Shown here: one piece after another, positions 7,211 through 44,758 of the stretch
How the letters are laid out: each line of letters starts with the position of its first letter
Position numbering within the stretch: position 1 is the first letter of the stretch
Source: Candidatus Nomurabacteria bacterium RIFCSPLOWO2_01_FULL_39_18
Lineage (GTDB): Bacteria; Patescibacteriota; Minisyncoccia; Phycocordibacterales; UBA9973
Assembly (NCBI GenBank): GCA_001787005.1
Contig: MFUV01000006.1
Coordinates: forward strand, 16,197 to 80,196
Direction: 5' to 3'
Length of the DNA stretch: 64,000 nucleotides
Notes under the pieces: model-generated
Told to the model about the DNA's origin: nothing
Databases searched by the model: none
Seen by the model: only the letters and a program-made list of their open reading frames with translations
Made by a program: the position numbers and the translations under genes

Positions 7211-7245
7211 TATAGCAATCAATAAAGATATAATGAAAATTATTT

Positions 7246-9112: not shown

Positions 9113-9180
9113 GTCCCGTACTAAATTTTGATTACGGGGCATAAAGATAAAGGTTATTAGTAAAATTTTAGTACCGGGAT
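9113..9180 (+). repeat. Long hairpin element with ATCCCG...CGGGAT-like termini; the 3' arm ends in the start codon of the 9179 gene.
   Basis: gtcccgtactaaatttt ...35 nt... aaaattttagtaccgggATG. A near-identical element lies at 22352. Confidence 0.55.
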
Positions 9181-27339: not shown

Positions 27340-28995
27340 ATGAACCAAGAGACTAAAAACTGTATTGATTGCAAAAATGAATTTGAAATAGATTCCGGTG
27401 ATTTGGTTTTGTATGAAAAAATTGGCTTAAAAATTCCGGAGCAGTGCTTCTTTTGTCGGATAAAACAGTATTCTGCTTTTTGGGTTTTTGGAAAATTCAG
27501 GAAGGGGGTCTCAAATTTATCAGGAGAAAGTTTGATTACTGTTTTGCCCTCTAGTCCGAGATATCCTATTTACACATCACATGAATGGTGGGGAGATGCG
27601 TGGGACCCGATGACTTTTGGGCAAGATTATAATTCATCTAGACCCTTTTTTGACCAATTAAAAGAACTTCAAGAAAAAATTCCCCGACCACACCAAGTTA
27701 GTTCAAAGAGTACCAACTGCGACTGGTGTGACGATTCTTGGGATTCAAAGAATTGTTATCTTTGCAGGTCTATTTTAAAATGTGAAAATACAAGTTATGG
27801 TTATCGGATTATAGAAACGAAAGATTCTTTTGATATAGTTTATTCTTTTAATTTACAAAATTCTTACAATTGTTTATTGTGTTACAATTCTTTCAATTTA
27901 AATTTTTCAGAGAATTCCAAAGATTGCATAGACTCGTATTTTCTTTTCGATTGTCGAAATTGTCAGAATTGCTTTATGTGCTGGAATTTACGCAATAAAC
28001 AGTATTGTATTCGAAATAAGCAGTACACAAAAGAAGCATATGAACAAGAACTTAAAAATATTAAATTAGATTCTTATGAAAATGTTGAAAATCTAAAGAA
28101 TGAACTTGAAAATATGTTAAAAAACGAAGCTGTGCATCGCGAGAATTTTAATTTGAAAACTACCAATTCTATTGGGAATTACATGACTAATTGCGACAAG
28201 TGTGTAAATGTTTTTTCTTGGGAAAATTCACAAAATTCACGCAATTCATTAAGGGGTTTAAATACCAAAGATTGTATAGATCAATTAGGTTGTTGGAATA
28301 ATGAAATTTCAGGAGACAATAGCTGTGTCACGGGTGGTTACGAAATAAAGCATTCGTCTTGGTCTGACGGCCGATATTCAGAGTACATCGATCTGTGTAT
28401 TGAAGTTGAACATTGCTTTGGTTGTGTCGGTCTTCGTAAAAAGAAATATTGTATCCTGAATAAACAATATGAGAAAGAAGAATATGAAATTCTGAAAGAT
28501 AAAATTATAAAGGATATGGAAAAAAGGGGAGAATATGGAAAATACTTACCATATTCTATGGGTATATGTGATTATAATTTGTCTAATGGTTTTGTTTATT
28601 TTCCCCAAACTACTAAAGAAGAAATAATAAAAAAAGGTGGCTACTGGTCAGAAGAAAACTTGTCTTCTAAGGATGGGATTTCTTCCGCAAAGCTTCCGGA
28701 TAGTATTCTAGACACAAAACCAGAAATTACTTCACAAGCTCTTATCTGTCCGGAAACTCACTACAGATTTAACATCTCACAAGATGAGTATGAATTTCAC
28801 AAAAATAAAAATTTTGCTTTACCCCGAATACATTTTGATTTAAGAATATTAAAAAAAGTAAAGAAAATTACCGCACTTAGGGGTTATCCCTACCAATGTA
28901 TTTATTGCTCAAAAAACATCAATGCCTATTATCCGCCAGAATGGGGATACCAAAAAATCGCCTGCGAAGATTGTTATAAAAAAAATATCGCCTAA
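27340..28995 (+). CDS. Large cysteine-rich protein, paralog 1 of 5. It has an N-terminal CxxC-17-CxxC zinc ribbon, a central Cys-repeat region and two C-terminal zinc ribbons.
   Basis: The N-terminus reads KNCIDCKNEFEIDSGDLVLYEKIGLKIPEQCFFCR. Repeated NCxxC...CxNCxNCFxCxNLRNKQYCIxNKQYTKEAY units follow. The C-terminus contains two CxxC pairs (CIYCSKN...CEDCYKKNIA); the YAPERPEIVYCEKCYQQEVY tail of paralogs 2-5 is absent. Confidence 0.55.
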   Translation: MNQETKNCIDCKNEFEIDSGDLVLYEKIGLKIPEQCFFCRIKQYSAFWVFGKFRKGVSNLSGESLITVLPSSPRYPIYTSHEWWGDAWDPMTFGQDYNSSRPFFDQLKELQEKIPRPHQVSSKSTNCDWCDDSWDSKNCYLCRSILKCENTSYGYRIIETKDSFDIVYSFNLQNSYNCLLCYNSFNLNFSENSKDCIDSYFLFDCRNCQNCFMCWNLRNKQYCIRNKQYTKEAYEQELKNIKLDSYENVENLKNELENMLKNEAVHRENFNLKTTNSIGNYMTNCDKCVNVFSWENSQNSRNSLRGLNTKDCIDQLGCWNNEISGDNSCVTGGYEIKHSSWSDGRYSEYIDLCIEVEHCFGCVGLRKKKYCILNKQYEKEEYEILKDKIIKDMEKRGEYGKYLPYSMGICDYNLSNGFVYFPQTTKEEIIKKGGYWSEENLSSKDGISSAKLPDSILDTKPEITSQALICPETHYRFNISQDEYEFHKNKNFALPRIHFDLRILKKVKKITALRGYPYQCIYCSKNINAYYPPEWGYQKIACEDCYKKNIA

Positions 28996-29084
28996 AAATT
29001 AAAAAAGCATAATAGTACAATAAACGCTACCGCTACCATTGTACTATTATTGTTTTTTTTATTATAAAATGATAAAATATTTTC

Positions 29085-30794
29085 ATGAATAGAGAAACTC
29101 ATAAATGTCAAAACTGCAAAAAAGATTTCATCATCGAGCCGGACGATTTTTCTTTTTATGAAAAAATAAAAGTTCCTCCGCCGACTTTTTGCCCGGAGTG
29201 CCGCATGATCCGACGTTTGTACTGGCGTAATGAACATTCTCTCTTTCGTAGACCCAACAGCACCCCAGGGTTCTCAGGGGAACACATTTCTATCTATCAT
29301 CCAGATGCGAAAATTACTTCTTATGATAAAGAAATGTGGTGGAGTGACAAATGGGACCCTTGCGACTATGGCGCGGATTATGATTTCGACAGACCATTTT
29401 TTGAACAATTCAAGGAGCTTTTAGAGAGGGTTCCGCATGTATCGTTTTTTGAGGGTAAATCAATAAATGCAAAATTTTGTAACTATGTTGTTGAGTTGAA
29501 AAATTGTTATTTAGTGACTGCTACTTGGAGATGCGAGGATTCAATGTATGGCAATCGTCTTTTTGAATGTAAATTTACCCACGATTCCTACATTTGTTCT
29601 CATACTGAATTTTGTTATGAAAATGTATATTGTAGCGACTCAAACCGACTATTTTTCTCCAGAGAAAGCGAGAATTGTTTGGATTCTTACTTTTTATATG
29701 ACTGTCGCAATTGCTCTAATTGCATTTTGAGTACAAACTTAAGAAACAAAAGTTACTGCATAGAGAATGTACAATACTCAAAAGAAGAATATTTTAAAAA
29801 GAAAAAAGAATTAGAGTTGAATACTAGATCAGGCATTAAAAAAGCAAATAAAAAATTTGAAAAACTATGGCAGAATGCATTCCATAAACACCTCAAGCTC
29901 ATTAACACCAATAATGTGGTCGGAGATCATGTTTCTAATTCACGCAATGCATACTACATTTTTGATTTCAGAGACGATGCGGAAAATGTGAAATATGCGC
30001 ATTGGGGTAATGGAGGATTAAAAGATTCCTATGATACAGGTCCGGGCTGTGGATATAAATCAGAAATGGGTTATGAAGGTGTGAGTACTGGTGATAAAAA
30101 TTATAAAACTTACTTTTGTGTCACGGTGTGGTATTCGAGGGATATCTACTATAGCCTTATGCTGAGTGATTGCCATGATTGCTTCGGGTGTGCCGAAATG
30201 CACAACAAGCAGTATTGTATTTTGAATAAGCAGTATACTAAAGAAGAATATCAAAATTTGTTACCTAGAATAATCAAACACATGAAGGAAATGCCATATG
30301 TTGACAAGGTGGGCAGGTCATATGAATTTGGAGAATTTTTTCCGGGAGAATTATCCCCGTTCGCTTATAATGAAACTGTAGCTCAAGATTATTTTCCAAT
30401 TGGGAAAGAAGATGCAGAATCAAGAGGATATTTATGGCGTGAATATATTCCCAATACTTACAAGACTACCGTAAAAGGGAACGAACTCCCCCAAACGATT
30501 TCCGAAGTTGATGATTCCATTCTTCATCAAGTAATTGAATGCGAAATAACTAAAAAGCCTTTTAAAATTACAGAACAAGAGTTGAGTTTTTATAGGAGGT
30601 TGGATTTGCCATTACCCTCTACTCATCCTGATGAACGACATAATCAAAGATTGAAATTAAGAAATCCGATGACTCTAAGGAAAAGGATGTGTTATTTTGG
30701 CGATAAAGAAGTTGATACAACTTATTTATTGGAAGAAGAAGGTGGTCCTCAAAAAGTAGTTTGCACAGAACATTATAATAAAGAGGTATATTAA
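29085..30794 (+). CDS. Large cysteine-rich protein, paralog 2.
   Basis: The N-terminus is MNRETHKCQNCKKDFIIEPDDFSFYEKIKVPPPTFCPECR and it has the same Cys-repeat architecture. Confidence 0.55.
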   Translation: MNRETHKCQNCKKDFIIEPDDFSFYEKIKVPPPTFCPECRMIRRLYWRNEHSLFRRPNSTPGFSGEHISIYHPDAKITSYDKEMWWSDKWDPCDYGADYDFDRPFFEQFKELLERVPHVSFFEGKSINAKFCNYVVELKNCYLVTATWRCEDSMYGNRLFECKFTHDSYICSHTEFCYENVYCSDSNRLFFSRESENCLDSYFLYDCRNCSNCILSTNLRNKSYCIENVQYSKEEYFKKKKELELNTRSGIKKANKKFEKLWQNAFHKHLKLINTNNVVGDHVSNSRNAYYIFDFRDDAENVKYAHWGNGGLKDSYDTGPGCGYKSEMGYEGVSTGDKNYKTYFCVTVWYSRDIYYSLMLSDCHDCFGCAEMHNKQYCILNKQYTKEEYQNLLPRIIKHMKEMPYVDKVGRSYEFGEFFPGELSPFAYNETVAQDYFPIGKEDAESRGYLWREYIPNTYKTTVKGNELPQTISEVDDSILHQVIECEITKKPFKITEQELSFYRRLDLPLPSTHPDERHNQRLKLRNPMTLRKRMCYFGDKEVDTTYLLEEEGGPQKVVCTEHYNKEVY

Positions 30795-30821
30795 AAATGA
30801 CATTATGTCATTTTACAAAAT

Positions 30822-32553
30822 GTTAGAATGAATAATCAAAGCGAAAAAAGAATATGCCAGAATTGCAAAAAGGACTTCACCATCGAGCCGGATGATTTTG
30901 GATTTTATGGAAAATAAAAGTTCCACCACCGACGTTTTGTCCGGAATGCAGACTTCAGAGAAGATTTGCCTGGCGGAACGAGCGGGCGCTTTACAAGCGC
31001 AAATGTGACTTATGCAAGAAAGATATTATTGCCATGTACCATGATTCTGTTTCATTCCCAGTATATTGTAGGGAGTGTTGGTGGGGAGATGGATGGGATG
31101 CTTCTTCTTACGCACGAGATTACGATTTTAATAAAAGTTTTTTTGAACAATTTAGTGAACTCTTAAAAGTTGTTCCGCGGCTCGCCCTTTTTCAAAGAAA
31201 TATAGTTAATTCAGATTATAGCAATATGGTTGTGGAATCAAAGAATGTTTATCTTTCTCATTCAGTAACCCAAAAATCTGAAAATGTTTTTTATTCGAAA
31301 AGCGTTGATGCCTCTCGAGACATATTTGATTCTCTGAATATTATTAACGGGTCGGAAAATTTATATGAAAATGTCGAGGCGCAGGGGAATTATAATTCGC
31401 AATACCTTTTACTCTGTCGTGGTGTGCTTGACTCTTATTATTGTGTGGATTGCATCAATTGTAGCAGTTGTTTTATGTCTTACAATTTGCGTAATAAACA
31501 GTTTAATATTCGCAATAAGCAATATACACGAGAAGGATATTTAAAAGAGCTTGAAAAATTAAATTTTAAAAGTCACCAAGCAAGGGAGGCTCTGCAGGGG
31601 GAATTCGAGGAAATAAAGAAGAAAGCTATTTATCGTTTCGGCAACATTACAAAATGTGTAGATGTTACTGGTAATAATCTGCTTAATGTTAAGAACGCCA
31701 AGGATTGTTTCGAGATATATGAGGCAGAGAACTGTAAATTTTGTTACAGGGCTCTATATGTCAAAGACTGTATGGATTTTACTTTTGGTGGCTGGTCGGA
31801 ATTGTGTTATGAGTATGTTACCGGTTCCATAAACAATTACAATGTTAAATTTTCCTCCAATGCTTTTAGTGTTCGTGATGCAGACTATGCTGATTATTGC
31901 ATGGACTGCAACAGTATTTTCGGATGTATTGGTCTCAAAAAGAAAGAAAATGCAATTTTGAATTGAATAGAGTTTATTCTAAAGAAGAATTTATAAAGTT
32001 AAGAGAAGAAATTATCAAGCAGATGAAAAAAATACCTTATGTGGATAAAAAAGGAAATGTTTATGAATACGGAGAATTTTATCCAACAGAGCTATCTACC
32101 TGGGCTTACAATGAAACCCTAGCACAGGAAATTTTCCCCTTAAGTAAAGAAAAAGCGGAGAAAAATGGTTATTCGTGGTGCGAACCAGCCGTAAAAAATT
32201 TCGATATAACTATGCCAGCAGAGAAAATTCCTGATAATATAGATAATGCAGGGGAGGAGATTCTGAAAGAAATTTTGGGTTGTGCGCACAAAGGGGACTG
32301 CGATCATCAATGTAGCACGGCTTTTCGATTAACTGACTATGAATTAAAATTTTATAAAAAACACGACATACCGCTTCCTATTCTTTGTTCCAACTGCCGT
32401 TATTACGAAAGAGTCAAAGTCATGCCCGCATTGAAACTTTGGCATCGAAAATGTATGAAAAGCGGATGTCCAAATGAATTCGAAACAGCGTACGCGCCAG
32501 AACGTCCGGAAATAATTTACTGTGAGAAGTGCTATCAGCAGGAAGTATATTAA
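30822..32553 (+). pseudogene. Cysteine-rich family paralog 3, disrupted by at least two frameshifts.
   Basis: The N-terminal fragment MNNQSEKRICQNCKKDFTIEPDDFGFYGK* stops at an A-run near 30913 (ggaaaataaaag against gaaaaaataaaag in paralog 2). The sequence continues in another frame (31034..31966). A second break near 31960 precedes the C-terminal part (31897..32553), which ends YAPERPEIIYCEKCYQQEVY. Confidence 0.6.
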
Positions 32554-32618
32554 AAAACAAAAACCATGATAACACCATGATAACACAATAACAGCGGTAG
32601 CGTCCATTGTGTTATTAT

Positions 32619-33125
32619 CTAGTTCTTAAAACTTTCAAAAAATATTTTCTTCGATATTTCGTCAATGTTGTTTGTGGTAAAAATTACCATCTCTGTTGTG
32701 AGTCCGAGATCCCTTTTTATATTTGTGAAAAGATATTCGTAAGGGTAAGGAGAAATCCAAGCGGAATTTTTAAGACAAACAAAACCAGCTTTTTTCAGAA
32801 GATAGCGCAGAGACTCACGTTCACTTTTTCTCTCTTCTGGTAAGTCGAGCAGAATTATTCTCCAGAATCCGTCCCAAGCTTGGGGGACTAGCGCATCTTC
32901 GCTTCCAAGTGTCATTGTGTTTAATCTACTTTTTCCATGAGCTGTGATTTTGGCATAATTTTGCCTTTCCGTTTTGTGAATCTCGGCGTAGCCACCTTCT
33001 ACCAAGTTTTTGAGCGCGCGAGATATAGCATAGGAGGTTTTTATGTCCCCATCCTTTAATTCTTCGACAGAGATTGCAGGTTTTTCGGAAAGTTTTTTGA
33101 GTATTTTCCTCGAATGACTTGACAT
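32619..33125 (-). CDS. PaaX-like winged-helix transcriptional regulator.
   Basis: There is an N-terminal wHTH, and the C-terminal WDGFWRIILLDLPEERKSERESLRYLLKKAGFVCLKNSAWISP matches the PaaX_C WDGxW...LPE...G(F/W) pattern. Confidence 0.5.
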   Translation of the reverse strand: MSSHSRKILKKLSEKPAISVEELKDGDIKTSYAISRALKNLVEGGYAEIHKTERQNYAKITAHGKSRLNTMTLGSEDALVPQAWDGFWRIILLDLPEERKSERESLRYLLKKAGFVCLKNSAWISPYPYEYLFTNIKRDLGLTTEMVIFTTNNIDEISKKIFFESFKN

Positions 33126-33223
33126 ACTTATAGCCTATCATATATACTCTCATTATACAAGTTTTTAGCGGTCGCAAATTAAATGTTCAAAAAATTATTA
33201 GTATAAAATAACCATATAAAACA

Positions 33224-35161
33224 ATGTCAAAAATCATAGGTATAGATTTGGGTACAACAAATTCAGCAGTAGCCGTCATAGAAGGAGGCGCACCGAAGAT
33301 TATAGAAAATGCAGAGGGAAATCGTACGACCCCCTCTGTGGTTTCGGTCGCCAAGAATGGCGACAGGCTTGTCGGACTTCTTGCTAAAAGGCAGGCAGTT
33401 ACCAACCCGGAAAATACAATTTACGGGATCAAGCGTTTCATGGGTCATAATTTTGAAGACCCGGAGGTGCAGAAAGATTTGAAAAATGCGTCATTCAAAG
33501 TTCAGAAAGGAGCCACCGGCGGAGTGGAAGTAAAAATTGGTGATAAATGGATGCGCCCAGAAGAAATCTCCGCGATGATTCTGTCAAAAATAAAATCTGA
33601 TGTGGAAGCGAAATTGGGAGTGAAAATTACTGAAGCGGTCATAACTGTGCCGGCATACTTCAACGATGCGCAAAGAAAAGCAACCAAAGATGCGGGGCAA
33701 ATTGCCGGGCTTGATGTGAAGCGTATCATCAATGAGCCGACAGCCGCCGCTCTCGCCTATGGATTCAATAAAAAGAAAAATGAAAAGATCGTAGTGTTTG
33801 ATTTCGGCGGGGGAACATTTGATGTGTCTGTGCTCGAGATTGGTGATGATGTAGTTGAAGTTAAGTCCACTGATGGCGACAGCCACCTCGGAGGCCGCGA
33901 TATTGATCACAAGATAATCAACTGGATTGCAGAAGAATTTAAAAAAACTTCTGGCGTGGATGTGCGTTCTGACAAGCTTGCTCTACAACGTCTGGACGAA
34001 GCGGCAGAAAAAGCGAAAATCGAGCTCTCAACCGCCATTGAAACAGAAATTAATATTCCATTCATCACTTCTACGGCGCAAGGCCCGCAACACTTACTTC
34101 TTAAAATGACTCGAGCCCAGCTCGAATCTATCGCTGATGAATATATAGCTCGTTCGATAGAGATAACGAAGCGCGCGATGGCTTCTTCTGGTTTTAAGAT
34201 TGAAGATATGAATGAAATAGTGATGGTGGGTGGGCAGACCAGAATGCCGAAGATCGTTGAGGAAGTGAAAAAGGTTTTCAATAAGACCCCAAACTTAACT
34301 ATCAACCCGGATGAAGTCGTGGCTCTCGGCGCCGCTGTGCAGGCGGGGGTATTGCAAGGAGATGTGCGAGATGTTCTACTCCTTGACGTGATACCACTTT
34401 CGCTTGGCATTGAGACATTGGGCGGAGTGGCCACTAAATTAGTTGAAAGAAATACGACTATTCCTTCAAATAAGTCGCAAGTGTTTTCTACTGCGGCTGA
34501 CAACCAGACTTCCGTAGAAATTCACATTACTCAAGGCGAGCGTCCAATGGCGAGCGACAATAAATCTTTGGGACGATTTATACTAGATGGTGTACCACCA
34601 GCACCGAGGGGCATGCCCCAAATAGAAGTGTCCTTTGATGTGGATGCCAATGGAATTCTAAATGTTACGGCAAAAGACAAAGCCAGTGGCAAGACCCAGT
34701 CCATTAAAATTGAAGCAAGTTCAGGACTCAAAGAAGAAGATATTAAAAAGATGCAAGCCGACGCGGAGCTTCATGCTGAAGAAGACAAAAAGAAAAAAGA
34801 CGTTGTGGATACAAAAAATACCGCAGAGATGATTATTTACACTGCTGAGAAAGCGCTGAAGGACAACGAAGCGAAAATTCCGGCAGAATTAAAAGATAAC
34901 GTGAATGCTAAGATCACAGCACTGCGAACCGCAAAAGACCTGCCTGCGCAGGCAGGTGGCACGGATTCAGATGCAATCAAAAAAGCGACCGAGGAACTTT
35001 CAACCGAAATGTCTAAAATTGGAGAAGCGATTCAGAAAAATTCACCCGAATCCGCAGGAGGCGGGCAGGCCAAGGCTCCCGAAGAACAGCCGACAGAAGT
35101 CAAAGACGCAGAATTCAAAGAAAAAAAAGAAGGGGAAGAAGGTGAATCTCCAAAAGCGTAA
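33224..35161 (+). CDS. dnaK: Chaperone DnaK (Hsp70).
   Basis: [24 protein letters not shown] and [15 protein letters not shown] are present. There is an in-frame 18-mer palindrome insert (DLPAQAGGT) near the C-terminus. Confidence 0.95.
34939..34956. repeat. Perfect 18-nt palindrome CCTGCCTGCGCAGGCAGG, in frame within dnaK.
   Basis: Encodes LPAQAG. Confidence 0.8.
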
Positions 35162-35180
35162 TTAAAAATAAAAAAATATC

Positions 35181-35798
35181 ATGGACTACAACACACTAGC
35201 TACAAAAGAATCTATAGAAAAAGTTGTCGAGGCACTTAGTGCAAGGAATGTTGAAGCACTAGTGGTAGAGTCTGGCAGTGATGCGCTTCTTAAAATAAAA
35301 GAGCTTATCCCGCAGGGCGCATCGGTTATGAACGGAGCCTCGGTTACGCTCGAGCAGATTGGCTTCGTAGATTATCTTAAAGGGGGAGAGCATGGTTGGA
35401 ACAATCTACATGAGGGAATAATTGCAGAAAAAGATTCTGCTAAGCAAGCACAACTGAGGAAGCTTGGCGTGCTGTCTGATTATTATCTGGGCAGTGTACA
35501 TGCACTCGCAGAGACGGGTCAGTTCGTTATTGCGTCCAATACCGGCAGCCAATTGCCGCATGTAGTATATTCTTCCCGCAACCTTATTTTCGTAGTGAGC
35601 ACCAAGAAAATTGTCCCGACTTTGCCGGATGCTATGACTCGCCTCATGGAGCATGTGATACCGCTCGAAGAAAAACACATGCAAGAAAAATATGGCGTCG
35701 GCACGGCGCCGAACAAGATTGTTACTTGGAATGGCGAGAGCGCTTACAATGGCAGAAAAATAAAAATGATCTTAGTAAATGAAGATCTCGGGTTTTAG
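35181..35798 (+). CDS. LUD-domain protein (LutC/YkgG family).
   Basis: It is about 205 aa, with GASVTLEQIGF...VIASNTGSQL...KIVTWNGESAYNGRKIKMILVNEDLG typical of DUF162/LUD. Confidence 0.55.
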   Translation: MDYNTLATKESIEKVVEALSARNVEALVVESGSDALLKIKELIPQGASVMNGASVTLEQIGFVDYLKGGEHGWNNLHEGIIAEKDSAKQAQLRKLGVLSDYYLGSVHALAETGQFVIASNTGSQLPHVVYSSRNLIFVVSTKKIVPTLPDAMTRLMEHVIPLEEKHMQEKYGVGTAPNKIVTWNGESAYNGRKIKMILVNEDLGF

Positions 35799-35935
35799 AA
35801 TTTTTTTGTTATAAATCAGAAAACCACCAAAGAACGGGGTTCCATGGTGGTTGATTTTCTCACGAATTATTTTACTGTCCTCTGCGGACGAGACCCCGTG
35901 AGAATGGATCCCGCCCGCTTGCGTCGAGGTTTCTC

Positions 35936-36481
35936 CTACGCGACGACGCTCTGCTTCTGCATGATGCGCGATACGAGCGCAGGGGTCGGGAAGAACACGT
36001 CATCCTCTCCGTCTCGAACTTGCAGGAGCATCTCCCTCTCGACTAGTTCTTGGACGCCGACGAAGACATGCTGGGGTCCGAACATGAAGATCCCGCTGAA
36101 CGGGATCTCAGGGATCTCATGCATTTGCGCCACCGGTTTCGCAACGAAGAGCGCATAGATCCCGATCGTGAGAATGGAGAGGATGTAGTACTTCCACATC
36201 GCACGCTGGATGCGCTCGCGCTCGTTGAAGTTGTGCTCCTGCGCCTTTTCGGCGCGCTGACACAACTCGTAATCTCCCTGCATCATCTCGACAAGACGGT
36301 GCCAGCTCACGCCGACCCACTGGTCGAGTTGTAGAGAGAAAGAGAGGATGCGTGCCGCAGCCTCCTCCCGTTCTGCCTTTTCGAGCGTTGCTATCAGGCT
36401 GTACTTACCGACGCGAATTGCTCTGGGGGAGCAGGGCATCTCTCCCTCAACTTTAAATAATCCTCTTCCCACTAACTTCAT
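35936..36481 (-). CDS. Hypothetical protein encoded in a GC-rich (~55-60% GC) islet; it has one predicted TM segment.
   Basis: It is the longest ORF in a region whose base composition departs sharply from the flanks. It is preceded by a ggaaaag RBS. Confidence 0.4.
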   Translation of the reverse strand: MKLVGRGLFKVEGEMPCSPRAIRVGKYSLIATLEKAEREEAAARILSFSLQLDQWVGVSWHRLVEMMQGDYELCQRAEKAQEHNFNERERIQRAMWKYYILSILTIGIYALFVAKPVAQMHEIPEIPFSGIFMFGPQHVFVGVQELVEREMLLQVRDGEDDVFFPTPALVSRIMQKQSVVA

Positions 36482-36617
36482 TTTTCTTTTCCTTTCTTGT
36501 CAAGGCGCCGGGGCCATCTAGATGTGGGCGGCGCGAACTTGTTCCTTATAAATATAGCACATTTTGAGTAAAAAGTCAATAGAACATAGGTATTTAGTTT
36601 GAAAAATCGAGCTAGTA

Positions 36618-38771
36618 ATGTATAATCTAATAATGGATTCCCCGGAAATACCCTTTAATAAAGAACTTACTTATCTCGGTATTACTACTTATCGGGACAA
36701 AAATACTCTTTTTGGCATCAAGCGCAAAGACAGACGTCAGCATGTTTACATGCTCGGAAAGTCCGGTACTGGTAAATCGGTATTGATGTTTAATATGATT
36801 ATTCAGAACATCCAGAACGGCGAGGGGGTCTGTTTGGTTGATCCGCATGGAGAAAATGTCGAAGGAGTTTTGTCTGCCATTCCGCCGCACCGCATGAAGG
36901 ATGTGGTTTATTTCAATCCCGCTGATGCCGACTATCATATCGGTTTTAATGTTTTAGAGTTGGTTGACCCTCAATATAAGCACTTGGTGGCTTCTGGACT
37001 AATGGGAATATTTACGAAGATTTGGGCGAATGCCTGGAGCGCTCGAATGGAATATATTCTAAACAATTGTATTCTGGCGCTCCTCGATACTCCAGGGACG
37101 ACGCTTCTCGGAATTCCTCGAATGCTGGTGGACAAGGACTATCGTCAGAAAATAATTTCCAATTTAAAAGATCCGGTGATTAAGGCTTTCTGGGTGCACG
37201 AATACGAAGCTTGGCAGGACAAATTTAGAAATGAAGCGATTGCTCCGATTCAAAACAAAGTCGGGCAGTTTCTTTCTACTTCTATTATCCGAAATGTCGT
37301 TGGTCAATCCAAAAGTACGATCAATATTTTTGACATGATGAATAACGGCAAGATCTTTTTAGTAAATGTTTCCAAAGGGCGTATTGGCGAGGACAATTCC
37401 GCGCTTCTCGGGGGCATGATTATTACCAAGATTCAGCTTGCCGCCATGGAGCGTGTGCGCATTCCCGAAGAGTCGCGTAAAGACTTCTATCTCTATGTGG
37501 ACGAATTTCAAAACTTTGTGACGGACGCTTTCGCCGGCATTCTTTCAGAGGCTCGCAAATATCGATTAAATTTGACCGTAGCTCATCAATACACTGCCCA
37601 GCTTATTTCAGACAAAAGCTCGGCGGTGCGCGATGCCATATTTGGCAACGTCGGTACGATGATAATCTTTCGCGTGGGGGCGGACGATGCGGAATTTCTA
37701 GAAAAAGAATTTGAACCGGAGTTTACTCCGCAGGATATTGTGAATCTGCCGAATTATAAAATTTATTTGAAATTGATGATTGACGGCGTGACCTCTCGTC
37801 CTTTCTCCGCGAAAACAATGCCCCAGATGGTGAAATCGGGGAATAAAGAAGTTGAACAAGAAGTAATAAGATCTTCTCGCGAGCTTTATTGCCGGCCGAA
37901 AGATGTTGTGGAAAGAGAAATTAATAATTGGAGCGGAATGTCGCTTGGCAATGATAGCGATGGAGGCAGTAGTGCGCTAGAAAAATTCCCCGTCATCTGC
38001 TCGCTTTGCAAGAAGGAGACGACAGTGCCTTTCAAGCCAGAAAAGGGCAGGGCAGTATATTGCAAAGATTGTATTGCGAAAATAAAATCCGGAGAAGTCA
38101 AAGTGGAGAAAGGGTCAGAGAATCAGATCAAGCACGATGAAACAAAATTTTATAAACCGCTGGCTGACCTCGGAATAGAATTTGAGCGGAAAGACGCTGG
38201 ACACGTTGAAGAAGAAAACAGGCATCCCGAAAGGACTGATACGCATACTACCAAAACCACTCTTCCACCGCACAAATCAAGCGTTCTTGGAGCTATTAAA
38301 AAACCTGCCCGACCAGATGACCCTGGTCGTTCGAGCGGGGTTTTTCATCATGATGATGAAAGTAAAAAAACAAAAGACAATGTAGCCTTGAGAGAAGTTT
38401 TAAACAAAACGCTTACGGCGCCTACTCCGAAACCAGAGCCCCAGGCTAGTCAGCCCAGAGAGGAAGTTTCACTTGATGCTTTGAAAAATAAAGTTAAAGA
38501 TATTGCTGCTACTTCCAAACCTGCTCACAATGCTGCGGTAGGTACTACAGGCAAAGACCGTGCCGCAGGTCCAGAAGAAATGGGTAAATTGAAGGATTTA
38601 ATCGCGGCTAAATCCAGCGAAACTGTACCGCCCGAAGTTGAGAAAAAACCAGAACCTACTCCTATTCCAACTCCTCCACCTGCACCAGAAAAGAAAGTTG
38701 TAGAGCCCCCACTGACCAAGGGCAATATAAAAGAAGTGCCAGAAGATGTGTTAATGAAAATTCTAGAGTAA
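36618..38771 (+). CDS. FtsK/HerA/VirD4(TraG)-like P-loop ATPase with a C-terminal zinc ribbon and a low-complexity tail; no transmembrane anchor.
   Basis: Walker A is HVYMLGKSGTGKS and Walker B is FYLYVDEFQNF. EARKYRLNLTVAHQYTAQL is coupling-protein-like. The zinc ribbon is CSLCKKETTVPFKPEKGRAVYCKDCIAK. There is a paralog at 44842. Confidence 0.6.
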   Translation: MYNLIMDSPEIPFNKELTYLGITTYRDKNTLFGIKRKDRRQHVYMLGKSGTGKSVLMFNMIIQNIQNGEGVCLVDPHGENVEGVLSAIPPHRMKDVVYFNPADADYHIGFNVLELVDPQYKHLVASGLMGIFTKIWANAWSARMEYILNNCILALLDTPGTTLLGIPRMLVDKDYRQKIISNLKDPVIKAFWVHEYEAWQDKFRNEAIAPIQNKVGQFLSTSIIRNVVGQSKSTINIFDMMNNGKIFLVNVSKGRIGEDNSALLGGMIITKIQLAAMERVRIPEESRKDFYLYVDEFQNFVTDAFAGILSEARKYRLNLTVAHQYTAQLISDKSSAVRDAIFGNVGTMIIFRVGADDAEFLEKEFEPEFTPQDIVNLPNYKIYLKLMIDGVTSRPFSAKTMPQMVKSGNKEVEQEVIRSSRELYCRPKDVVEREINNWSGMSLGNDSDGGSSALEKFPVICSLCKKETTVPFKPEKGRAVYCKDCIAKIKSGEVKVEKGSENQIKHDETKFYKPLADLGIEFERKDAGHVEEENRHPERTDTHTTKTTLPPHKSSVLGAIKKPARPDDPGRSSGVFHHDDESKKTKDNVALREVLNKTLTAPTPKPEPQASQPREEVSLDALKNKVKDIAATSKPAHNAAVGTTGKDRAAGPEEMGKLKDLIAAKSSETVPPEVEKKPEPTPIPTPPPAPEKKVVEPPLTKGNIKEVPEDVLMKILE

Positions 38772-38894
38772 GGATGTCATTCTAACATTCTATAATTAGC
38801 AGTGAGAGAGAAATAATAAGTTTACTTAATTATTACGAACGAATGAACTAATTATATTGTATCCAGTTATATAGAACATTAGAATAAGAATAAA

Positions 38895-39239: not shown

Positions 39240-39526
39240 ATACTGCCCGTACCCCACTTTTTTATATGGCGAATCTTGGAAGCGAAATTTCTCGGGCTAT
39301 TTCAGAGTACCAAAAAGACGATTTTATAAACATGCATAATTCAATACTTCGTGCACAAAATATAATACAAAAAATCAAAGAATTTTCGGAGATGAAAGGG
39401 AGAACGAGCGAGCTTGAGATCTTAGAATCTATAATAGGAGATTTAGACCAAAAAAAACTTGAAGTGGATAAAAATCAACTTCTTGATTATTTTTCTCCAT
39501 TTGCAATTAGGTTAATGGCAATGTGA
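39236..39526 (+). CDS. Hypothetical protein.
   Basis: Called from the ORF; its stop overlaps the ABC transporter start. Confidence 0.35.
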   Translation: MNTARTPLFYMANLGSEISRAISEYQKDDFINMHNSILRAQNIIQKIKEFSEMKGRTSELEILESIIGDLDQKKLEVDKNQLLDYFSPFAIRLMAM

Positions 39527-41313
39527 TGCAAAGCGAAACAAAAACACAATCACAAACCTCTACGGCGAATTTTTCCTGGCTAGATATACCTAAGTCAATT
39601 TGGTATTTTTTGGATGAGGATAAGCCGAGATTTCTTTTTTATTCTATTTGTCTTTTATTAATTTTATTTTATGATCTTGTTCCACCATATCTCGTTGGTA
39701 AAATAATTGATTTTCTTTCTACTTATAATACAGGACAATCACTACACTCGTTTTACTTTTATATAATTTTTATTACTGTCAGTTTTCTCTTAGCTTCACT
39801 CGTTAGGCTAAAAAGTAGAAATGCTATAGCTATTATGGCAGTCAAGGCTCGAGCCAGAGCTAGGATCTGGGGTTTTGAAAGATTGACTGAATTTTCACTT
39901 GAATGGCATCGCAAAGAAAATACTGGTAATAAGTTAGAAAGAATTTTTACTGGAGCTGAGGCTATTTCAAGGTGGCTTAGGATGTTTCGATCAGATTTAT
40001 TAAAAATTTTTGTAAACACCATAGGTATGTCTATAGCTTTTGGTTTTACTGATTTCAAAATTGTTTCCTTGGTAATTATATACGTAGCATTTTTTTTGTT
40101 TATTGAATTTTATTTTGGTAAAAAAGTTTTTAGTTTAAGTAATCAATTTAACAGTCTAAATCAGAAAGCAGGAGGTACGTATGTTGAATCCGCAAGCAAC
40201 ATGCTTTCTATAAAAGCGCTAGGGAGTGAATCTGGGATGAATGAACGTGTTTTTGGCCGAGAAACATTATCGCGTAATATAGCTATTAAAAAACATAATA
40301 CTATTAATAAAAAATGGCGCTTACTTCATTTTTTAAATAGTGGGGCACTAGGTCTGTTTATTTATTTTTCGGGTATGTCAGTCATATCTCAGGCTATTAC
40401 CATAGGAACAGTTTTAGTATTTTTTACTTATTTTTATAAGCTACAGGGATATATGGCTGATATTAGTGAATTACATTTAGACCTTATTGATTCTAAATCC
40501 GATCTAGGGAACATGATGCCAATATTTAGAGAAACGGAATTTATTAAAACGGGCAACGATCCTTTTCCTAAGAATTGGCAGAACATTGAAATTAAAAATG
40601 CTTCCATGGACTATGGATCCGGGCAGATGGGACTGAATGATTTTAATTTAACTTTACAGAGGAATACGAAAACGGGAATTGCTGGGTTGTCAGGTTCGGG
40701 TAAATCTACTCTGGCAAAAATTATCTTAGGGTTATACGCGCTCCGGTCCGGAGAGTTTAAGATTGGCAATAAAAATTATTATTCTATTTCTCACAATGAA
40801 ACATTAAGCCATCTTACTGTGGTATTGCAAGAAACTGAACTTTTCAATCTTTCTTTGCGAGAAAATATCACGATGATGCGTGAAGAAAATAAAGAACTCA
40901 TGGATATGGCGGTAGAGATTTCTCAATTGGGAGAAGTAATTGATCGCTTACCCGAGAAGCTTGACTCATTGATAGGAGAAAAAGGATACATGCTCTCGGG
41001 CGGAGAGCGTCAGCGTCTCGGCATCGCTCGGGCAATTTACAAAAATGCGTCCATTGTGATATTGGATGAAGCTACTTCATCGCTTGATTCTGAAACAGAA
41101 GGAAAAATTATGGAGAAGCTTTTAGGAGAATACGGTAAAGATAAAACATTTTTAATAATTGCGCATCGTTTGGGAACTTTGAGGTATACCGACAATATTG
41201 CGGTAATGGAAAGGGGACAGGTTGTTGAAGAGGGCAGTTATGATAAATTAATGAATGATCCCAATTCGGTTTTCCATAGAATGAATAAAGAACAAAAGAA
41301 AAATGATAAATAG
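39523..41313 (+). CDS. ABC exporter with fused permease and ATPase (MsbA/MdlB-like half transporter).
   Basis: Six predicted TM helices precede the NBD. Walker A is GLSGSGKSTLAKII, the signature is LSGGERQRLGIARA and Walker B is IVILDEATSSLD. There is no C39 peptidase domain. Confidence 0.85.
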   Translation: MMQSETKTQSQTSTANFSWLDIPKSIWYFLDEDKPRFLFYSICLLLILFYDLVPPYLVGKIIDFLSTYNTGQSLHSFYFYIIFITVSFLLASLVRLKSRNAIAIMAVKARARARIWGFERLTEFSLEWHRKENTGNKLERIFTGAEAISRWLRMFRSDLLKIFVNTIGMSIAFGFTDFKIVSLVIIYVAFFLFIEFYFGKKVFSLSNQFNSLNQKAGGTYVESASNMLSIKALGSESGMNERVFGRETLSRNIAIKKHNTINKKWRLLHFLNSGALGLFIYFSGMSVISQAITIGTVLVFFTYFYKLQGYMADISELHLDLIDSKSDLGNMMPIFRETEFIKTGNDPFPKNWQNIEIKNASMDYGSGQMGLNDFNLTLQRNTKTGIAGLSGSGKSTLAKIILGLYALRSGEFKIGNKNYYSISHNETLSHLTVVLQETELFNLSLRENITMMREENKELMDMAVEISQLGEVIDRLPEKLDSLIGEKGYMLSGGERQRLGIARAIYKNASIVILDEATSSLDSETEGKIMEKLLGEYGKDKTFLIIAHRLGTLRYTDNIAVMERGQVVEEGSYDKLMNDPNSVFHRMNKEQKKNDK

Positions 41314-42979
41314 TGAAACCAAAACCTGTAAAAAATGCAAGCAAGAATTCATAATTGAACCGGACGATTTTTCTTTTTATGAGAAAATGAAAGTTCCGGT
41401 GCCGGAGATATGCCCTGACTGCCGTTTCAAGATGCGGGCAGTTTTTCGCAACGAGCGGACGCTTTACAAAAGGACTTGCGGTCTATGCAATCGCTCTATC
41501 ATCACAATGTACAGTCCGAATTCTCCCTATATTGTGTATTGTAATGACTGCTTTATTTCTGATAAATGGGATCCGTATTCTTATGCGATGGATTACGAGC
41601 CGTCTAAGTCATTTTTTGAGCAATTAAAAGAACTTACCATAAAAGTTCCAAAATCCGCCACCTACAGCAGCACGTCTACGGGTGTAAATATCAACAGCGA
41701 GTATTCTAACTTTGCCGGAGGCAATAAAGATGGTTATTTGATTTTTAATTCCGGTCCGGGAAATGAAAACTGCGCGTATTCTCGTGGCATCATTGGGGCT
41801 CGAGATGTTTTCGATGTTTATTATGGCGATGAAATTGAAAATACATATGAATGTGTGAATGTCCACAAGAACAACGGGGTGATTTATGGGCAAAACATAT
41901 CTGACTCTATAGATTCTCGTTTTGTCTCAAATTGCTTTGGTTGTACAAATTGTTTCGGATGCGTGAATCTTCGCCATAAATCCTATTATTTTTTTAATGA
42001 ACCGATGAAAAGAGATGAATGGCTCGAGCGTGTTAAAGAATTTTCTGGGAGTTACGCAAAAACAGAAGAGATGAAACGGAAATTTTCAGAATTTTCTCTG
42101 AAGTTCCCTCGTCGTGAGAATAATAATTTAAAAACTACAAATTGTTTCGGAGACTATATTTTTGAATCAAAAAATTGCCATCAATGCTTCGAGGTTTCCT
42201 TTTGTGAAGATATGCGATATTCCTTCTCTGTAAAACGGGGCAAAGATTGCGCTGATATGATCGGGCATTGTCGCAGTTCAGAGCTATTATACAACGGCGT
42301 CGGCGTCGGGGCTGGTGCAAGGAATGTTATTTGCTCGTGGTGGGTTGAAAGTTCCCAAGATGTTCTATATTCATTTGTGACTCGCCAAAGCAGTAATTGC
42401 ATCGGCTGCGATGGTGTTAAAGGCGGGAGTTTCGTTATTTTAAACAAGCGCTATAATGAAGACGAATACATAAAAATTAGATCTCAAATCACAGAAGAAT
42501 TGAAGGCGGAAGGTGTCTACGGAGACTTTTTTCCAGCCGAGCTTTCTTTTTTTGCTTATAATGAAACTATCGGGCAGGACAACAGACCCCTTACGCGCGA
42601 GGAAGCTCTTTCAGAAGGTTTCAGGTGGGAAGATGAAATTCAGAAAACAGAAGGGAAAGGAACCCTGAAGACTGAAGACATTCCAGACAAAATAAAAGAT
42701 GTGGAAGATAGTATTCTGGAAGAAGTGCTAACCTGCACCAAATGTTCCAGGAATTATCGTTTGATCAGACGTGAGTTGGAGTTTTACAGGAAAATGCTGA
42801 TTCCTATTCCTCGAGAATGTTGGAATTGTCGATTTACTGACCGCATCCTCCGCCGAGGTCCGTATAAATTCTGGGATCGCACTTGCGCAAAATGTAATAA
42901 AGAAATTATTACCAATTATGCCCCCGACAGACCGGAGATAGTGTACTGTGAAAAGTGTTACCAGCAGGAGGTGTATTGA
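41303..42979 (+). CDS. Large cysteine-rich protein, paralog 4.
   Basis: The N-terminus is KTCKKCKQEFIIEPDDFSFYEKMKVPVPEICPDCR and the C-terminus is YAPDRPEIVYCEKCYQQEVY. Confidence 0.55.
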   Translation: MINSETKTCKKCKQEFIIEPDDFSFYEKMKVPVPEICPDCRFKMRAVFRNERTLYKRTCGLCNRSIITMYSPNSPYIVYCNDCFISDKWDPYSYAMDYEPSKSFFEQLKELTIKVPKSATYSSTSTGVNINSEYSNFAGGNKDGYLIFNSGPGNENCAYSRGIIGARDVFDVYYGDEIENTYECVNVHKNNGVIYGQNISDSIDSRFVSNCFGCTNCFGCVNLRHKSYYFFNEPMKRDEWLERVKEFSGSYAKTEEMKRKFSEFSLKFPRRENNNLKTTNCFGDYIFESKNCHQCFEVSFCEDMRYSFSVKRGKDCADMIGHCRSSELLYNGVGVGAGARNVICSWWVESSQDVLYSFVTRQSSNCIGCDGVKGGSFVILNKRYNEDEYIKIRSQITEELKAEGVYGDFFPAELSFFAYNETIGQDNRPLTREEALSEGFRWEDEIQKTEGKGTLKTEDIPDKIKDVEDSILEEVLTCTKCSRNYRLIRRELEFYRKMLIPIPRECWNCRFTDRILRRGPYKFWDRTCAKCNKEIITNYAPDRPEIVYCEKCYQQEVY

Positions 42980-43015
42980 TTGTCTTATTCGTACGAATAG
43001 GTAAATAGAAAAAGT

Positions 43016-44758
43016 ATGAAAAGCGAAACTAAAAAATGTCAAAATTGCAAAAAAGATTTCACCATCGAACCGGAGGATTTTAATTTCTACCAAAAAATCA
43101 AAGTCCCACCACCGACTTTTTGCCCGGAGTGCCGGATGCAGAGGCGGATGGCTTGGCGTAATGAGCGCACACTTCATAGAAACAAATGCGCGAAGACAGG
43201 CAAGAGCCTGGTGAGCTGTTTTGCGGCTGATTCTCCTTTTACAATCTTTGAGCGGGACATTTGGTGGGGTGATGAATGGGATCCACGCGACTATGGACAG
43301 GACTATGATTTCAACAAACCGTTTTTTGCCCAATTTCGGGAGCTTATGGAGCGAACACCTCAACCCAACCTCTTTATAGGCAAATGCGTGAATACTTTTT
43401 ATGGTAATTATATTGGCGAGTTTAAGAATTCTTATCTTGTTTCTGCTTCCTGGGGCGGGGAGGATGTGTATTATTCTTCTCGAGTTCAAAATTCGAAAAA
43501 CTGTATGGATATGTTTACCTCAGGGGATTGTCAATTCTGCTACGACGACATCTCTTCCTCTAAGTGCTACGAAACATTTTTTTCCCAATATGCGGAGGCT
43601 TGCACGAGCTCCTATTTTCTTTACGATTGCAAAAATTGCATAAATTGTTTTGGCTGTACTAATTTACGCAACAAATCTAATTGTATGTGGAATGAACAAC
43701 TTACTAAAGAAGCATATGACAAGCAACTCAAAGAATTAAATTTGAATAGTTTCAAAAATTTAATGCTAGCCAAAGAAAAGTTTGAGAATTTAAAAATGAA
43801 AGCCATCAGACGATATGCCAACATAATTCGGTCTACAAATGTTTCTGGTGATAACATTATAAATTCAGACAATTGCCAGAATTGCTTTGATCTCTTCGGT
43901 GAAGTTAAGGACTGCAAATTTATCACCAACTGTGCGATTAAATTCTATACAAGTTATGATGGTTATGGCGTAGGAGCGAATTCTGAGCTCGTATATGAAG
44001 CCATGGATTCTGGAGTGGATGCCTCTCGGCTCCTTTTTACTCTGACTGCCTGGGAGTGTCTTAATACTGAATATTGTATAAATTGCCACGGCTCCAACAA
44101 TCTCTTTGGTTGTGTAGGTCTACGTAATAAAAGTTACTGTATTTTGAATAAACAATACACCAAGGAAGAATTTTTGAAACTGCGAGAGGAAATCATGAAG
44201 CACATGATGGAGATGCCATATTCCGACAAAAGGGGAAATGTGTACAGGTATGGAGAATATTTCCCGGCAGAGATTTCACCCTTCGGCTACAACGAGACTG
44301 TGGCACGGGATTATTTTCCAATAAATAAAAACGATATCATCAAAAATGGCTATAAATACATTGAGAAAGAGAAGCCAGAATACCAAGCCACTCGTATGGC
44401 AAAATATCTGCCTGACAATATCAAAGATACCGATGAACAGATTCTAAAGGAGGTTATTGAGTGTGAATCCTGTAGGAGACCTTTCAAGATTATCGAAAAT
44501 GAACTTATTTTCTTAAAAAGATTTAATCTTGCGTTGCCGAGGAAATGTTTTGAGTGTCGTCACCAAGAAAGATTTAAAAAAGTTAATCCTCCCAAACTCT
44601 ATCACCGGCAGTGCATGTGTGGCGGTGCAGAGTCACCAAGAACGACAGTGGAGCATAGCCACTCTGGTCAATGCACGAACGAATTCGAGACCTCTTATGC
44701 CCCCGAACGACCAGAAATAGTGTACTGCGAGAAATGCTTCCAGCAGGAAGTTTACTGA
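43016..44758 (+). CDS. Large cysteine-rich protein, paralog 5.
   Basis: The N-terminus is KKCQNCKKDFTIEPEDFNFYQKIKVPPPTFCPECR and the C-terminus is YAPERPEIVYCEKCFQQEVY. Confidence 0.55.
   Translation: MKSETKKCQNCKKDFTIEPEDFNFYQKIKVPPPTFCPECRMQRRMAWRNERTLHRNKCAKTGKSLVSCFAADSPFTIFERDIWWGDEWDPRDYGQDYDFNKPFFAQFRELMERTPQPNLFIGKCVNTFYGNYIGEFKNSYLVSASWGGEDVYYSSRVQNSKNCMDMFTSGDCQFCYDDISSSKCYETFFSQYAEACTSSYFLYDCKNCINCFGCTNLRNKSNCMWNEQLTKEAYDKQLKELNLNSFKNLMLAKEKFENLKMKAIRRYANIIRSTNVSGDNIINSDNCQNCFDLFGEVKDCKFITNCAIKFYTSYDGYGVGANSELVYEAMDSGVDASRLLFTLTAWECLNTEYCINCHGSNNLFGCVGLRNKSYCILNKQYTKEEFLKLREEIMKHMMEMPYSDKRGNVYRYGEYFPAEISPFGYNETVARDYFPINKNDIIKNGYKYIEKEKPEYQATRMAKYLPDNIKDTDEQILKEVIECESCRRPFKIIENELIFLKRFNLALPRKCFECRHQERFKKVNPPKLYHRQCMCGGAESPRTTVEHSHSGQCTNEFETSYAPERPEIVYCEKCFQQEVY

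Follow-up and report, generated by a model that had tools for sequence, protein, structure and literature searches.

Why should a groundwater bacterium with a very small genome keep several copies of a large, cysteine-rich protein that no database describes? Genomes of this kind are well under 1 Mb (contigs reach ~0.8 Mb), yet they keep five to nine copies of a 1.7-kb gene, by estimate ~1-2% of the genome. The case studied here is a stretch of 64,000 nucleotides, referred to as the window, from Candidatus Nomurabacteria bacterium RIFCSPLOWO2_01_FULL_39_18 (assembly GCA_001787005.1, contig MFUV01000006.1, positions 16,197 to 80,196 of the forward strand). An earlier note on this DNA, made from the sequence alone, had proposed that five open reading frames (ORFs) of the window encode a family of cysteine-rich proteins with zinc-ribbon termini, one ribbon being shared with an adjacent ATPase. 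These five homologous ORFs, all on the + strand, do form a true paralogous family with zinc-ribbon termini, which has at least 7,961 relatives; four of them are intact (p1, p2, p4 and p5) and one copy (p3) carries two frameshifts. The databases, structures and literature found say no more of the protein than 'zinc-binding', and what has been gained is a defined architecture, a set of predicted metal-binding cysteines and a specific genomic partner, namely soluble VirD4-like ATPases. The best explanation as a whole, to which we would give somewhat less than an even chance, is that of a large undescribed family of ~560-aa proteins whose ribbons are metal sites and which serve a pair of ATPases, within the cytoplasm, as rigid adaptors or cargo.

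Architecture and predicted metal sites

The modules follow one another in the order R1(x24)-R2(x17), an aromatic linker, two beta-solenoids, a middle domain and R3(x24)-R4(x17). R1 is a CxxC-x24-CxxC ribbon followed by a basic helix, R2 is a CxxC-x17-CxxC ribbon, and the linker after this pair is both aromatic and acidic (WWxDxWDP...PFFxQF). The two narrow beta-solenoids are internally duplicated, with ~12 residues per turn and with Cys, Ser and other small residues at the inward positions, and with an LRNKxYCIxNKQYTKEEY cap and a helix closing each of them. The second ribbon pair is reached through a conserved middle domain (YGEFFP...YNET). The segments after R1 and R3 are basic (segment isoelectric point, pI, of 9.4-9.6), while the body of the protein is acidic. 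All five ORFs start with a CxxC...CxxC ribbon and contain the cap-type unit twice, as the earlier note had observed, and the second of these features reflects a duplication within the protein: when the halves of p5 are compared by BLASTP, the solenoid repeat region aligns with E 2e-11 and the ribbon pair with E 4e-8. The spacing of x17 that had been given for the N-terminal ribbon needs correction, as all five paralogs have CxxC-x24-CxxC in R1, and p4 and p5 have it in R3 too; x17 belongs to the second ribbon type, and can be read by eye in R2 of p3. In profile-profile comparisons with hhalign, R1 equals R3 at 99.3% probability (E 3e-20) and R2 equals R4 at 97.4%, and R1 or R3 against R2 or R4 reaches at most 16%, so that there are two ribbon types arranged as a duplicated pair.

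AlphaFold2 (AF2) models were obtained for p5 (predicted local distance difference test, pLDDT, 81.2; predicted template modelling score, pTM, 0.83) and for p4 (pLDDT 87.0, pTM 0.88), with local confidence above 90 in the ribbons, linker and middle domain and ~65-76 in the two repeat regions. The earlier note had offered a beta-solenoid or a treble-clef array as the choices for the fold; the models contain both, in the form of two beta-solenoids and four treble-clef/ribbon modules. At the end of the second repeat region, the p4 model places four strands exactly 12 residues apart, and in the family alignment Cys/Ser occupancy autocorrelates at every multiple of 3 residues, with a peak of Asn/Asp occupancy at lag 12. 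A Foldseek search of the PDB gave no match, and a sequence-profile search of the PDB no real one, its best being a chance LIM-like match (E 0.86). As both searches were empty, the architecture of the whole protein is without a solved counterpart. The nearest fold analogues that can be named are other narrow beta-solenoids, namely insect and plant ice-binding proteins (1m8n, 3ult), the curli protein CsgA (8c50, 8enq) and the left-handed beta-helix acyltransferases. The family does not show the match to a hexapeptide-repeat hidden Markov model (HMM) together with 18-residue coils by which the left-handed beta-helix class is recognised.

No Pfam or NCBIfam model covers the core of the family, and recurrent matches are limited to sub-threshold ones of the ribbons to zf_Tbcl (PF13451) and zf_Tbcl_2 (PF23477/TIGR04272). 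The first of these, a 'probable treble clef domain', is the former zf-trcl, to which the N-terminal ribbon had been likened earlier. The likeness is there, R1 and R3 having the pattern F-x-I...FY...P-x-P...CxxCR within CxxC-x24-CxxC, but it stays below the gathering cut-off of 24 bits: p2 scores 15.0 bits and p4 16.2 bits, p1 and p5 do not match, and 10 of 67 family members reach E<0.01. A few family members in the databases are flagged PF13451. Ribbons of the PF13451 type have been reported at the C-termini of some DEAD-box helicases; a literature search found no paper on the domain. R2, R4 and the ATPase ribbon share with PF23477/TIGR04272 the CxxC-x17-CxxC spacing and the signature ...P..RP.VYC..C, with the difference that the family has this ribbon as one module among four, in a protein of 560 aa. 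Here p4 lies below both cut-offs, with 21.9 bits against zf_Tbcl_2 (cut-off 27) and 17.2 bits against TIGR04272 (cut-off 36), p5 gives no match, and about a quarter of the p4 orthologs listed carry a precomputed PF23477 match. For the CxxC-x17-CxxC domain no function is known, although zinc binding by this ribbon class has been shown with inductively coupled plasma mass spectrometry (ICP-MS) in Methanosarcina mazei small proteins (PMC12704099).

Database names for members of the family are nearly all 'hypothetical' or 'uncharacterized'. The UniProt name of p4 is 'Zinc-binding domain-containing protein', one Joint Genome Institute (JGI) entry reads 'YbaR (Trm112 family)', and hypothetical protein A3A95_01100 of the same Nomurabacteria genome matches the p5 product with 100% identity. 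The literature, searched by Pfam and TIGR accession and for Parcubacteria families rich in cysteine, yielded no description of the family, and the preprint of Meheust et al. merely notes Parcubacteria-enriched hypothetical families. The earlier note had named a confident match to a known enzyme family as the result that would speak against its proposal; searches of Pfam, NCBIfam, PDB profiles, Foldseek and PADLOC found none. We regard the family and its architecture as new, and the mechanism is inferred.

The cysteines are fewer than had been thought and fall into two unequal groups. Instead of more than 40 per protein, the counts from p1 to p5 are 32, 26, 33 (reconstructed p3), 31 and 35, or 5-6% of residues, and across 182 family ORFs the median is 34 (range 24-49). 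The ribbons differ in how well they are kept: R1 is intact in 179/179 family ORFs, R2 in 79/180, R3 in 160/181 and R4 in ~97%. Within the solenoids, Cys is kept in at least 90% of the family at no more than two positions (211 and 366, numbered as in p5), and the neighbouring cap cysteines 196, 205, 208, 214, 357 and 375 are 60-90% conserved. The remaining solenoid cysteines, which keep a 3-residue register, are 20-45% conserved and swapped for Ser, Thr, Ala, Gly or Val; p4 has Val, Ile or Ser in place of most of them. The view that 40-plus cysteines are metal sites is not supported, as only the ribbon cysteines and a few cap cysteines are conserved. From these patterns we infer that the solenoid cysteines are small residues lining a tight core rather than metal ligands, and that the ribbons would be the metal sites, with one to four zinc ions per paralog. 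The expected numbers of zinc sites are two in p1, one in p2, four each in p3 and p4, and three in p5.

Two of the paralogs had been described differently at their C-termini. An invariant tail and C-terminal CxxC ribbons had been attributed to p2, which in fact ends ...GGPQKVVCTEHYNKEVY (its tail being VVCTEHYNKEVY), with no Cys in either C-terminal ribbon; p2 is atypical within the family, since R4 is intact in ~97% of members. Conversely, the C-terminus of p1 had been set apart as divergent, although it carries an intact x18 ribbon before its ...IA ending, and a like ending (...CYQKEIA) occurs in one member at another locus (L016; loci are given as L numbers). The cytoplasmic location proposed for the proteins agrees with the sequences, none of the paralogs having a signal peptide, a hydrophobic N-terminus or a transmembrane (TM) segment (maximum 19-residue hydropathy <=0.8).

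Distribution and evolution

The family is far larger than chance could produce. In addition to the relatives from a word-indexed search, an exhaustive profile search of 1.84 billion representatives returned 2,299 clusters (50% identity) at E<=1e-30, the best 150 hits being 444-625 aa long, and more than 592 loci were matched with one genome per species. The family is nearly restricted to records of Parcubacteria/Paceibacteria-type Patescibacteria, with Nomura-, Giovannoni-, Staskawicz-, Lipton-, Sung-, Jorgensen- and Niyogibacteria, Paceibacterota and Minisyncoccia as the named sources. Many SPIRE-type records with the family are labelled 'uncultured Candidatus Saccharibacteria', which we suspect to be automated labels. 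One 2.2-kb contig with a full family member (L066, CAYZAZ010000094.1) is labelled 'uncultured Gammaproteobacteria', probably through mis-binning.

Tandem arrays are common, as 53 of the 83 family-anchored loci have at least two copies, with up to nine in tandem (L040). The paralogs of the window are ~30-35% identical in pairs (30-34% for each of the others against p1). When the copies of nine syntenic genomes are placed in a neighbour-joining tree, grouping follows genomic position: the gene just 5' of ATP2, one of the two ATPase genes described below, forms one clade with a member in every genome, and orthologs of p1, p3 and p4 are present in some genomes only. The recurrence of position-specific orthologs across genomes argues that the paralogs are old, with some birth and death. 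Orthologs of p1 stand at the equivalent position after grpE in L001 and L067 (55-57% identity), and the p5 ortholog lies immediately 5' of ATP2 in every syntenic genome examined. The p3 orthologs in L001 and L067 are intact, and p3 itself is thus either a recent pseudogene or the product of an assembly error or slippage, between which the reads would be needed to choose.

Because synonymous sites are saturated among paralogs at 30-35% amino acid identity, the ratio of nonsynonymous to synonymous substitution rates (dN/dS) was taken from one close pair, p4 and its closest ortholog (87% amino acid identity). With dN 0.072 and dS 0.99, dN/dS is ~0.07, and this pair is under strong purifying selection in every domain. 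Family orthologs nevertheless diverge faster than the ATPases and chaperones, p5 being 47-70% identical across genomes against 72-90%.

The ATPase pair and the readings of function

The genomic partners of the family in the window are two soluble ATPases, ATP1z, which is VirD4/TrwB/TraD-like, and ATP2, which is VirD4/HerA-like. Their P-loop domain is homologous to that of TrwB: ATP1z scores 40 bits and ATP2 23 bits against Pfam TrwB_AAD_bind (cut-off 20.5), both match the TrwB crystal structure (1e9r, E 6.9e-5 for ATP1z), the matches of the two include TraG-D_C, T4SS-DNA_transf and DUF87, and Walker A (GKSGTGKS) and Walker B (LYVDEF) motifs can be read by eye. Unlike the type IV coupling proteins (VirD4/TrwB/TraD), ATP1z and ATP2 are without an N-terminal membrane domain, their N-termini not being hydrophobic and their maximum 19-residue hydropathy being 1.13-1.14, and no channel or relaxase genes are nearby; no VirB4 channel or relaxase was found in the window or among the recurrent neighbours of 83 family-anchored loci and 80 loci anchored on ATP1 homologs. 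A survey of Patescibacteria put the VirD4-like coupling-protein homologs of 2,918 genomes at 5,713, only 148 of them near virB4, and their exaptation for another function was left open by the authors (PMC12102498). ATP1z and ATP2, likewise not next to virB4, resemble these orphan homologs. The role of such soluble ATPases in Patescibacteria is an acknowledged open question (PMC12102498), which the family makes experimentally approachable.

ATP1z and the family are joined by a shared ribbon module. The ribbon of this 717-aa ATPase (CSLCKKETTVPFKPEKGRAVYCKDC) passes both curated cut-offs, with 46.8 bits against zf_Tbcl_2 (cut-off 27) and 49.5 bits against TIGR04272 (cut-off 36). The link to the family that the earlier note had drawn from it stands, with the qualification that the ribbon is of the R2/R4 type and not of the N-terminal one: in hhalign comparisons it matches R2 at 97.0% probability (E 8e-11) and R4 at 86% (E 5e-6), against 11% for R1 and 5% for R3. 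Plain HMMs of the ATPase ribbon and the family ribbons cross-match both ways, and no other protein in the loci shares the R2/R4 ribbons. Among 28 ATP1 orthologs 22 carry the ribbon, and three of the six that lack it are truncated at contig ends; none of 26 ATP2 orthologs has it. Two short stretches of ATP1z are also conserved, PLADLGIEFE within the variable, low-complexity tail (~38151-38183, aa 512-522; five residues invariant across 14 orthologs) and EVPEDxLxKxL at the extreme C-terminus; these could be docking motifs.

Unbiased clustering of the neighbours in the 83 family-anchored loci gives the same partner. A cluster of VirD4/TrwB-like ATPases is found in 35/83 and is the sole partner beyond one lineage; the next real neighbours (AI-2E-family permease, DnaK, DnaJ, L21, PaaX-like, CysS) are found in at most 18 loci, all in a Nomurabacteria-like syntenic block. 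In 18 of the 19 loci with both ATPases the family genes lie between them, in either gene order, as in ATP1-FAMx4-ATP2 (L022) and ATP2-FAMx7-ATP1 (L068), where FAM stands for a family gene. The lineage of the window has the order grpE, FAM(s), paaX-like (reverse strand), dnaK, ATP1z, FAM(s), ATP2, dnaJ. One locus (L088) reads dnaK-ATP1z-ATP2-dnaJ with no family gene between, which places the ATPase pair as such within the chaperone cluster. Across syntenic genomes ATP2 keeps 82-90% identity and DnaK 81-90%.

On the explanation that we tentatively favour, the family proteins would be cytoplasmic and serve the ATP1z/ATP2 pair as rigid adaptors or as its cargo. Docking might use the ribbon module that they share, with the ATPases themselves or a common nucleic-acid or protein ligand as the target, and different paralogs would supply different specificities. 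Several observations weigh against this explanation. In the reciprocal test, the 80 metagenome loci anchored on ATP1 homologs (48-87% identity) have a family member within 8 kb in 13 cases only, all of them closer relatives, and an ATPase therefore has no need of an adjacent family gene. At the more distant of these loci the ribbon is usually kept, with a gene for a protein of ~460 aa, TM466, upstream in place of a family gene. Moreover, 30 of the 83 family-anchored loci are single-copy and many have no ATPase within 10 kb, and adjacency alone is weak evidence because the genes of these genomes are tightly packed on one strand. TM466 is encoded in 42 of the 80 ATP1-anchored loci, in 37 of them on the same strand directly 5' of the ATP1 homolog, and adjoins the family module in seven others (L002, at 6325-7719, L022, L027, L038, L041, L048 and L077). 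Its hydrophobic stretch is likely a membrane anchor, and TM466 may be the missing anchor of the soluble VirD4-like ATPases. TM466-ATP1z appears to be the more widespread unit and the family arrays a clade-specific addition, which lowers confidence in the family as an obligate partner of the ATPase.

The alternative that survives best, though unlikely on balance, takes the family proteins for free-standing structural proteins that bind RNA or DNA, in which the ribbon pairs are nucleic-acid clamps on a rigid solenoid spacer and the adjacency to the ATPases is synteny inherited in one clade. Both ribbon classes have been reported at the C-termini of DEAD-box helicases. The basic helices after R1 and R3 on an otherwise acidic body would suit such clamps, and the many family loci without ATPases, like the ATP1 homologs elsewhere that mostly lack adjacent family genes, are what inherited synteny would leave. 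However, family genes stand between the ATPases in both orders and in several lineages (L010, L022, L027, L068 and L079 against L001 and L012), so that inheritance alone is a poor explanation, and within the loci examined the R2/R4 ribbon is common to the family and ATP1 only.

Export has a smaller share of the probability, and we regard it as doubtful. Here the family proteins would be translocated cargo or effectors, recognised by the ATPases through their conserved termini and exported by the Patescibacteria type IV secretion system or the neighbouring ABC (ATP-binding cassette) exporter into or onto a host cell; TM466 might anchor the ATPases to the membrane, and DnaK, DnaJ and GrpE would keep the proteins export-competent. 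Substrate recruitment is the canonical role of VirD4-type ATPases (PMC12857230). The arrays lie directly beside the ATPase genes and inside the grpE-dnaK-dnaJ cluster, the C-terminal module hardly varies, an ABC exporter gene overlaps p4 and recurs in L018 and L021, the TM466 gene adjoins the module at the seven loci listed above, and the nearest structural analogues are extracellular solenoids (curli, antifreeze proteins). Against export, the ATPases have no TM domain and the family proteins no signal peptide, no virB4 or channel gene recurs among the neighbours in the 83 loci, and a zinc ribbon at each end is what one typically sees in proteins that stay inside the cell. The dN/dS of ~0.07 is also more conservative than is typical of host-interaction proteins, and an ATP2 as conserved as DnaK suggests a housekeeping role.

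A more specific form of the export proposal, and a more doubtful one, starts from analogy with the type IV coupling proteins: paralogs that carry a conserved terminal module and are encoded beside a coupling-protein gene could be its clients. Effectors of Xanthomonas, for comparison, have a conserved VirD4-binding C-terminal domain. The paralog arrays would then be the client set of the 'orphan' VirD4-like ATPases, recognised by their ribbon termini, handed to the essential type IV secretion system or to a new minimal translocon and delivered into the host cell, with TM466 as a tether where it is adjacent. If this were true, episymbiotic candidate-phyla-radiation bacteria would have their first candidate effector family, which would also explain why thousands of coupling-protein genes lie far from virB4.

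A role as chaperone-linked redox or metal sensors or holdases (with an Hsp33- or DnaJ-like logic), or in iron-sulphur (Fe-S) or zinc storage, is closest to the 'cytoplasmic metal-binding proteins' of the earlier note and is highly improbable. It would account for the proteins being rich in Cys, for the arrays inside grpE-...-dnaK-...-dnaJ in the window and ~15 loci, and for a CxxCxxCxxC motif at the end of solenoid 1. The DnaK/DnaJ linkage is, however, confined to one syntenic lineage (15/83 loci), the motif has one of its four Cys conserved in at least 90% of the family and lacks two of the four in its duplicated copy, solenoid Cys can be replaced by Ser, Val or Gly, and p2 retains one ribbon only. 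Neither a ferredoxin-type 4Fe-4S motif (CxxCxxCxxxCP with four conserved Cys) nor an Fe-S Pfam match was found in the paralogs and family members. Finally, a module for defence against phages, or another mobile-element module, made up of a HerA-like ATPase and effector paralogs that vary, is suggested by the paralog arrays and by weak PADLOC matches of the ATPases to mad8 (E 1e-14 and 6e-12) and HerA, but is scarcely credible given that no family member tested (p1, p4, p5) matches in PADLOC, that phage tblastn found no homolog of the family, that the genes sit in a core syntenic chromosome among ribosomal, chaperone and tRNA-synthetase genes, and that the p4 ortholog pair is under strong purifying selection and ATP2 is as conserved as DnaK.

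Further features of the window

The window is ordinary core chromosome, with genes for ClpB, tRNA synthetases, ribosomal proteins, RpoA and GrpE/DnaK/DnaJ; an Rfam search of it returned no match. Table 1 gives the coordinates of the family genes, their modules and their neighbours.

Table 1. Family genes, ribbon modules and neighbouring genes, in positions of the window.
Feature	Position	Strand	Description
p1	27340-28995	+	551 aa, 32 Cys
p1 R1	27361-27456	+	intact, x24
p1 R2 and R3		+	degenerate
p1 R4	28897-28974	+	intact, spacer x18; ...IA ending
p1 cap motifs	27988-28041 and 28432-28485	+	
p2	29085-30794	+	569 aa, 26 Cys
p2 R1	29106-29201	+	sole intact ribbon of p2
p2 R2, R3, R4		+	Cys ligands gone
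p3	~30828-32553	+	reconstructed product 576 aa, 33 Cys
p3 frameshifts	~30911-30919 and ~31937-31950	+	both within A-rich homopolymeric runs
p3 ribbons		+	R1, R2, R4 recognisable; R3 with insertion; tail YAPERPEIIYCEKCYQQEVY
p4	41303-42979	+	558 aa, 31 Cys; canonical member
p4 R1	41327-41422 (residues 9-40)	+	x24
p4 R2	41477-41551 (residues 59-83)	+	x17
p4 R3	42734-42829 (residues 478-509)	+	x24
p4 R4	42884-42958 (residues 528-552)	+	x17
p5	43016-44758	+	580 aa, 35 Cys
p5 R1	43037-43132	+	intact
p5 R2		+	degenerate
p5 R3	44462-44557	+	x24
p5 R4	~44612-44737	+	carries 17-aa His-rich insertion
p5 cap motifs	43664-43717 and 44120-44173	+	
ATP1z	36618-38771	+	717 aa; soluble VirD4/TrwB/TraD-like P-loop ATPase, x17 ribbon, long low-complexity tail, no TM segment
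ATP1z zinc ribbon	37998-38072 (aa 461-485)	+	CSLCKKETTVPFKPEKGRAVYCKDC; R2/R4 type
ATP2	44842-46353	+	503 aa; soluble VirD4/HerA-like ATPase without ribbon
grpE	26676-27302	+	chaperone frame around arrays and ATPases
dnaK	33224-35161		chaperone frame
dnaJ	46455-47552		chaperone frame
TM466 homolog	11204-12568	+	454 aa, hydrophobic N-terminal stretch, no Pfam match; 24 kb from ATP1z
ABC exporter	39523-41313	+	fused transmembrane and nucleotide-binding domains; 5' of p4 with overlap
PaaX_M-domain regulator	32619-33125	-	divergent, between first array and dnaK

The overlap between p4 and the ABC exporter gene upstream is 11 nt, and at L018 and L021 the exporter has the equivalent position between ATP1z and a family gene; the gene 5' of the p4 ortholog at L083 did not align to the exporter of the window. 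The PaaX_M-domain regulator keeps its place just 5' of dnaK in 12 loci and may stand in for HrcA. A protein with Sigma70_r4 and HARE-HTH is often encoded further upstream of TM466; in the window its gene lies at 9179-10207, and both are 24 kb from the ATPase. Between this gene and the TM466 homolog there is a 154-aa ORF (10682-11146) with a weak match to an IS200-like Y1 transposase (E 1.6e-5), which might relate to local rearrangement.

Two long hairpins flank p1. The one at 27287-27333, a perfect inverted repeat of 21 nt around a 5-nt loop, runs over the stop codon of grpE and stops 7 nt short of the p1 ATG; it is unique in the window, and its core, TTAGACTC-N7-GAGTCTAA, resembles the heat-shock operator CIRCE (controlling inverted repeat of chaperone expression). 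A CIRCE-like hairpin was dropped as a feature of the family, since L019, L060 and L067 lack it at the corresponding site and none of the 82 loci compared contains it. Scans for sigma-70 promoters gave no enrichment over shuffles (58 against 50.3 ± 7.3). The second hairpin, at 29001-29058 in the p1-p2 spacer, has 21-nt arms that are 90% complementary and a 16-nt loop. Further along, a 181-aa ORF on the - strand (35936-36481) with a weak DUF4234 match lies between a LUD-domain gene and ATP1z, and G+C rises to 0.46 over 34000-38000, compared with 0.33-0.40 in the flanking family genes.

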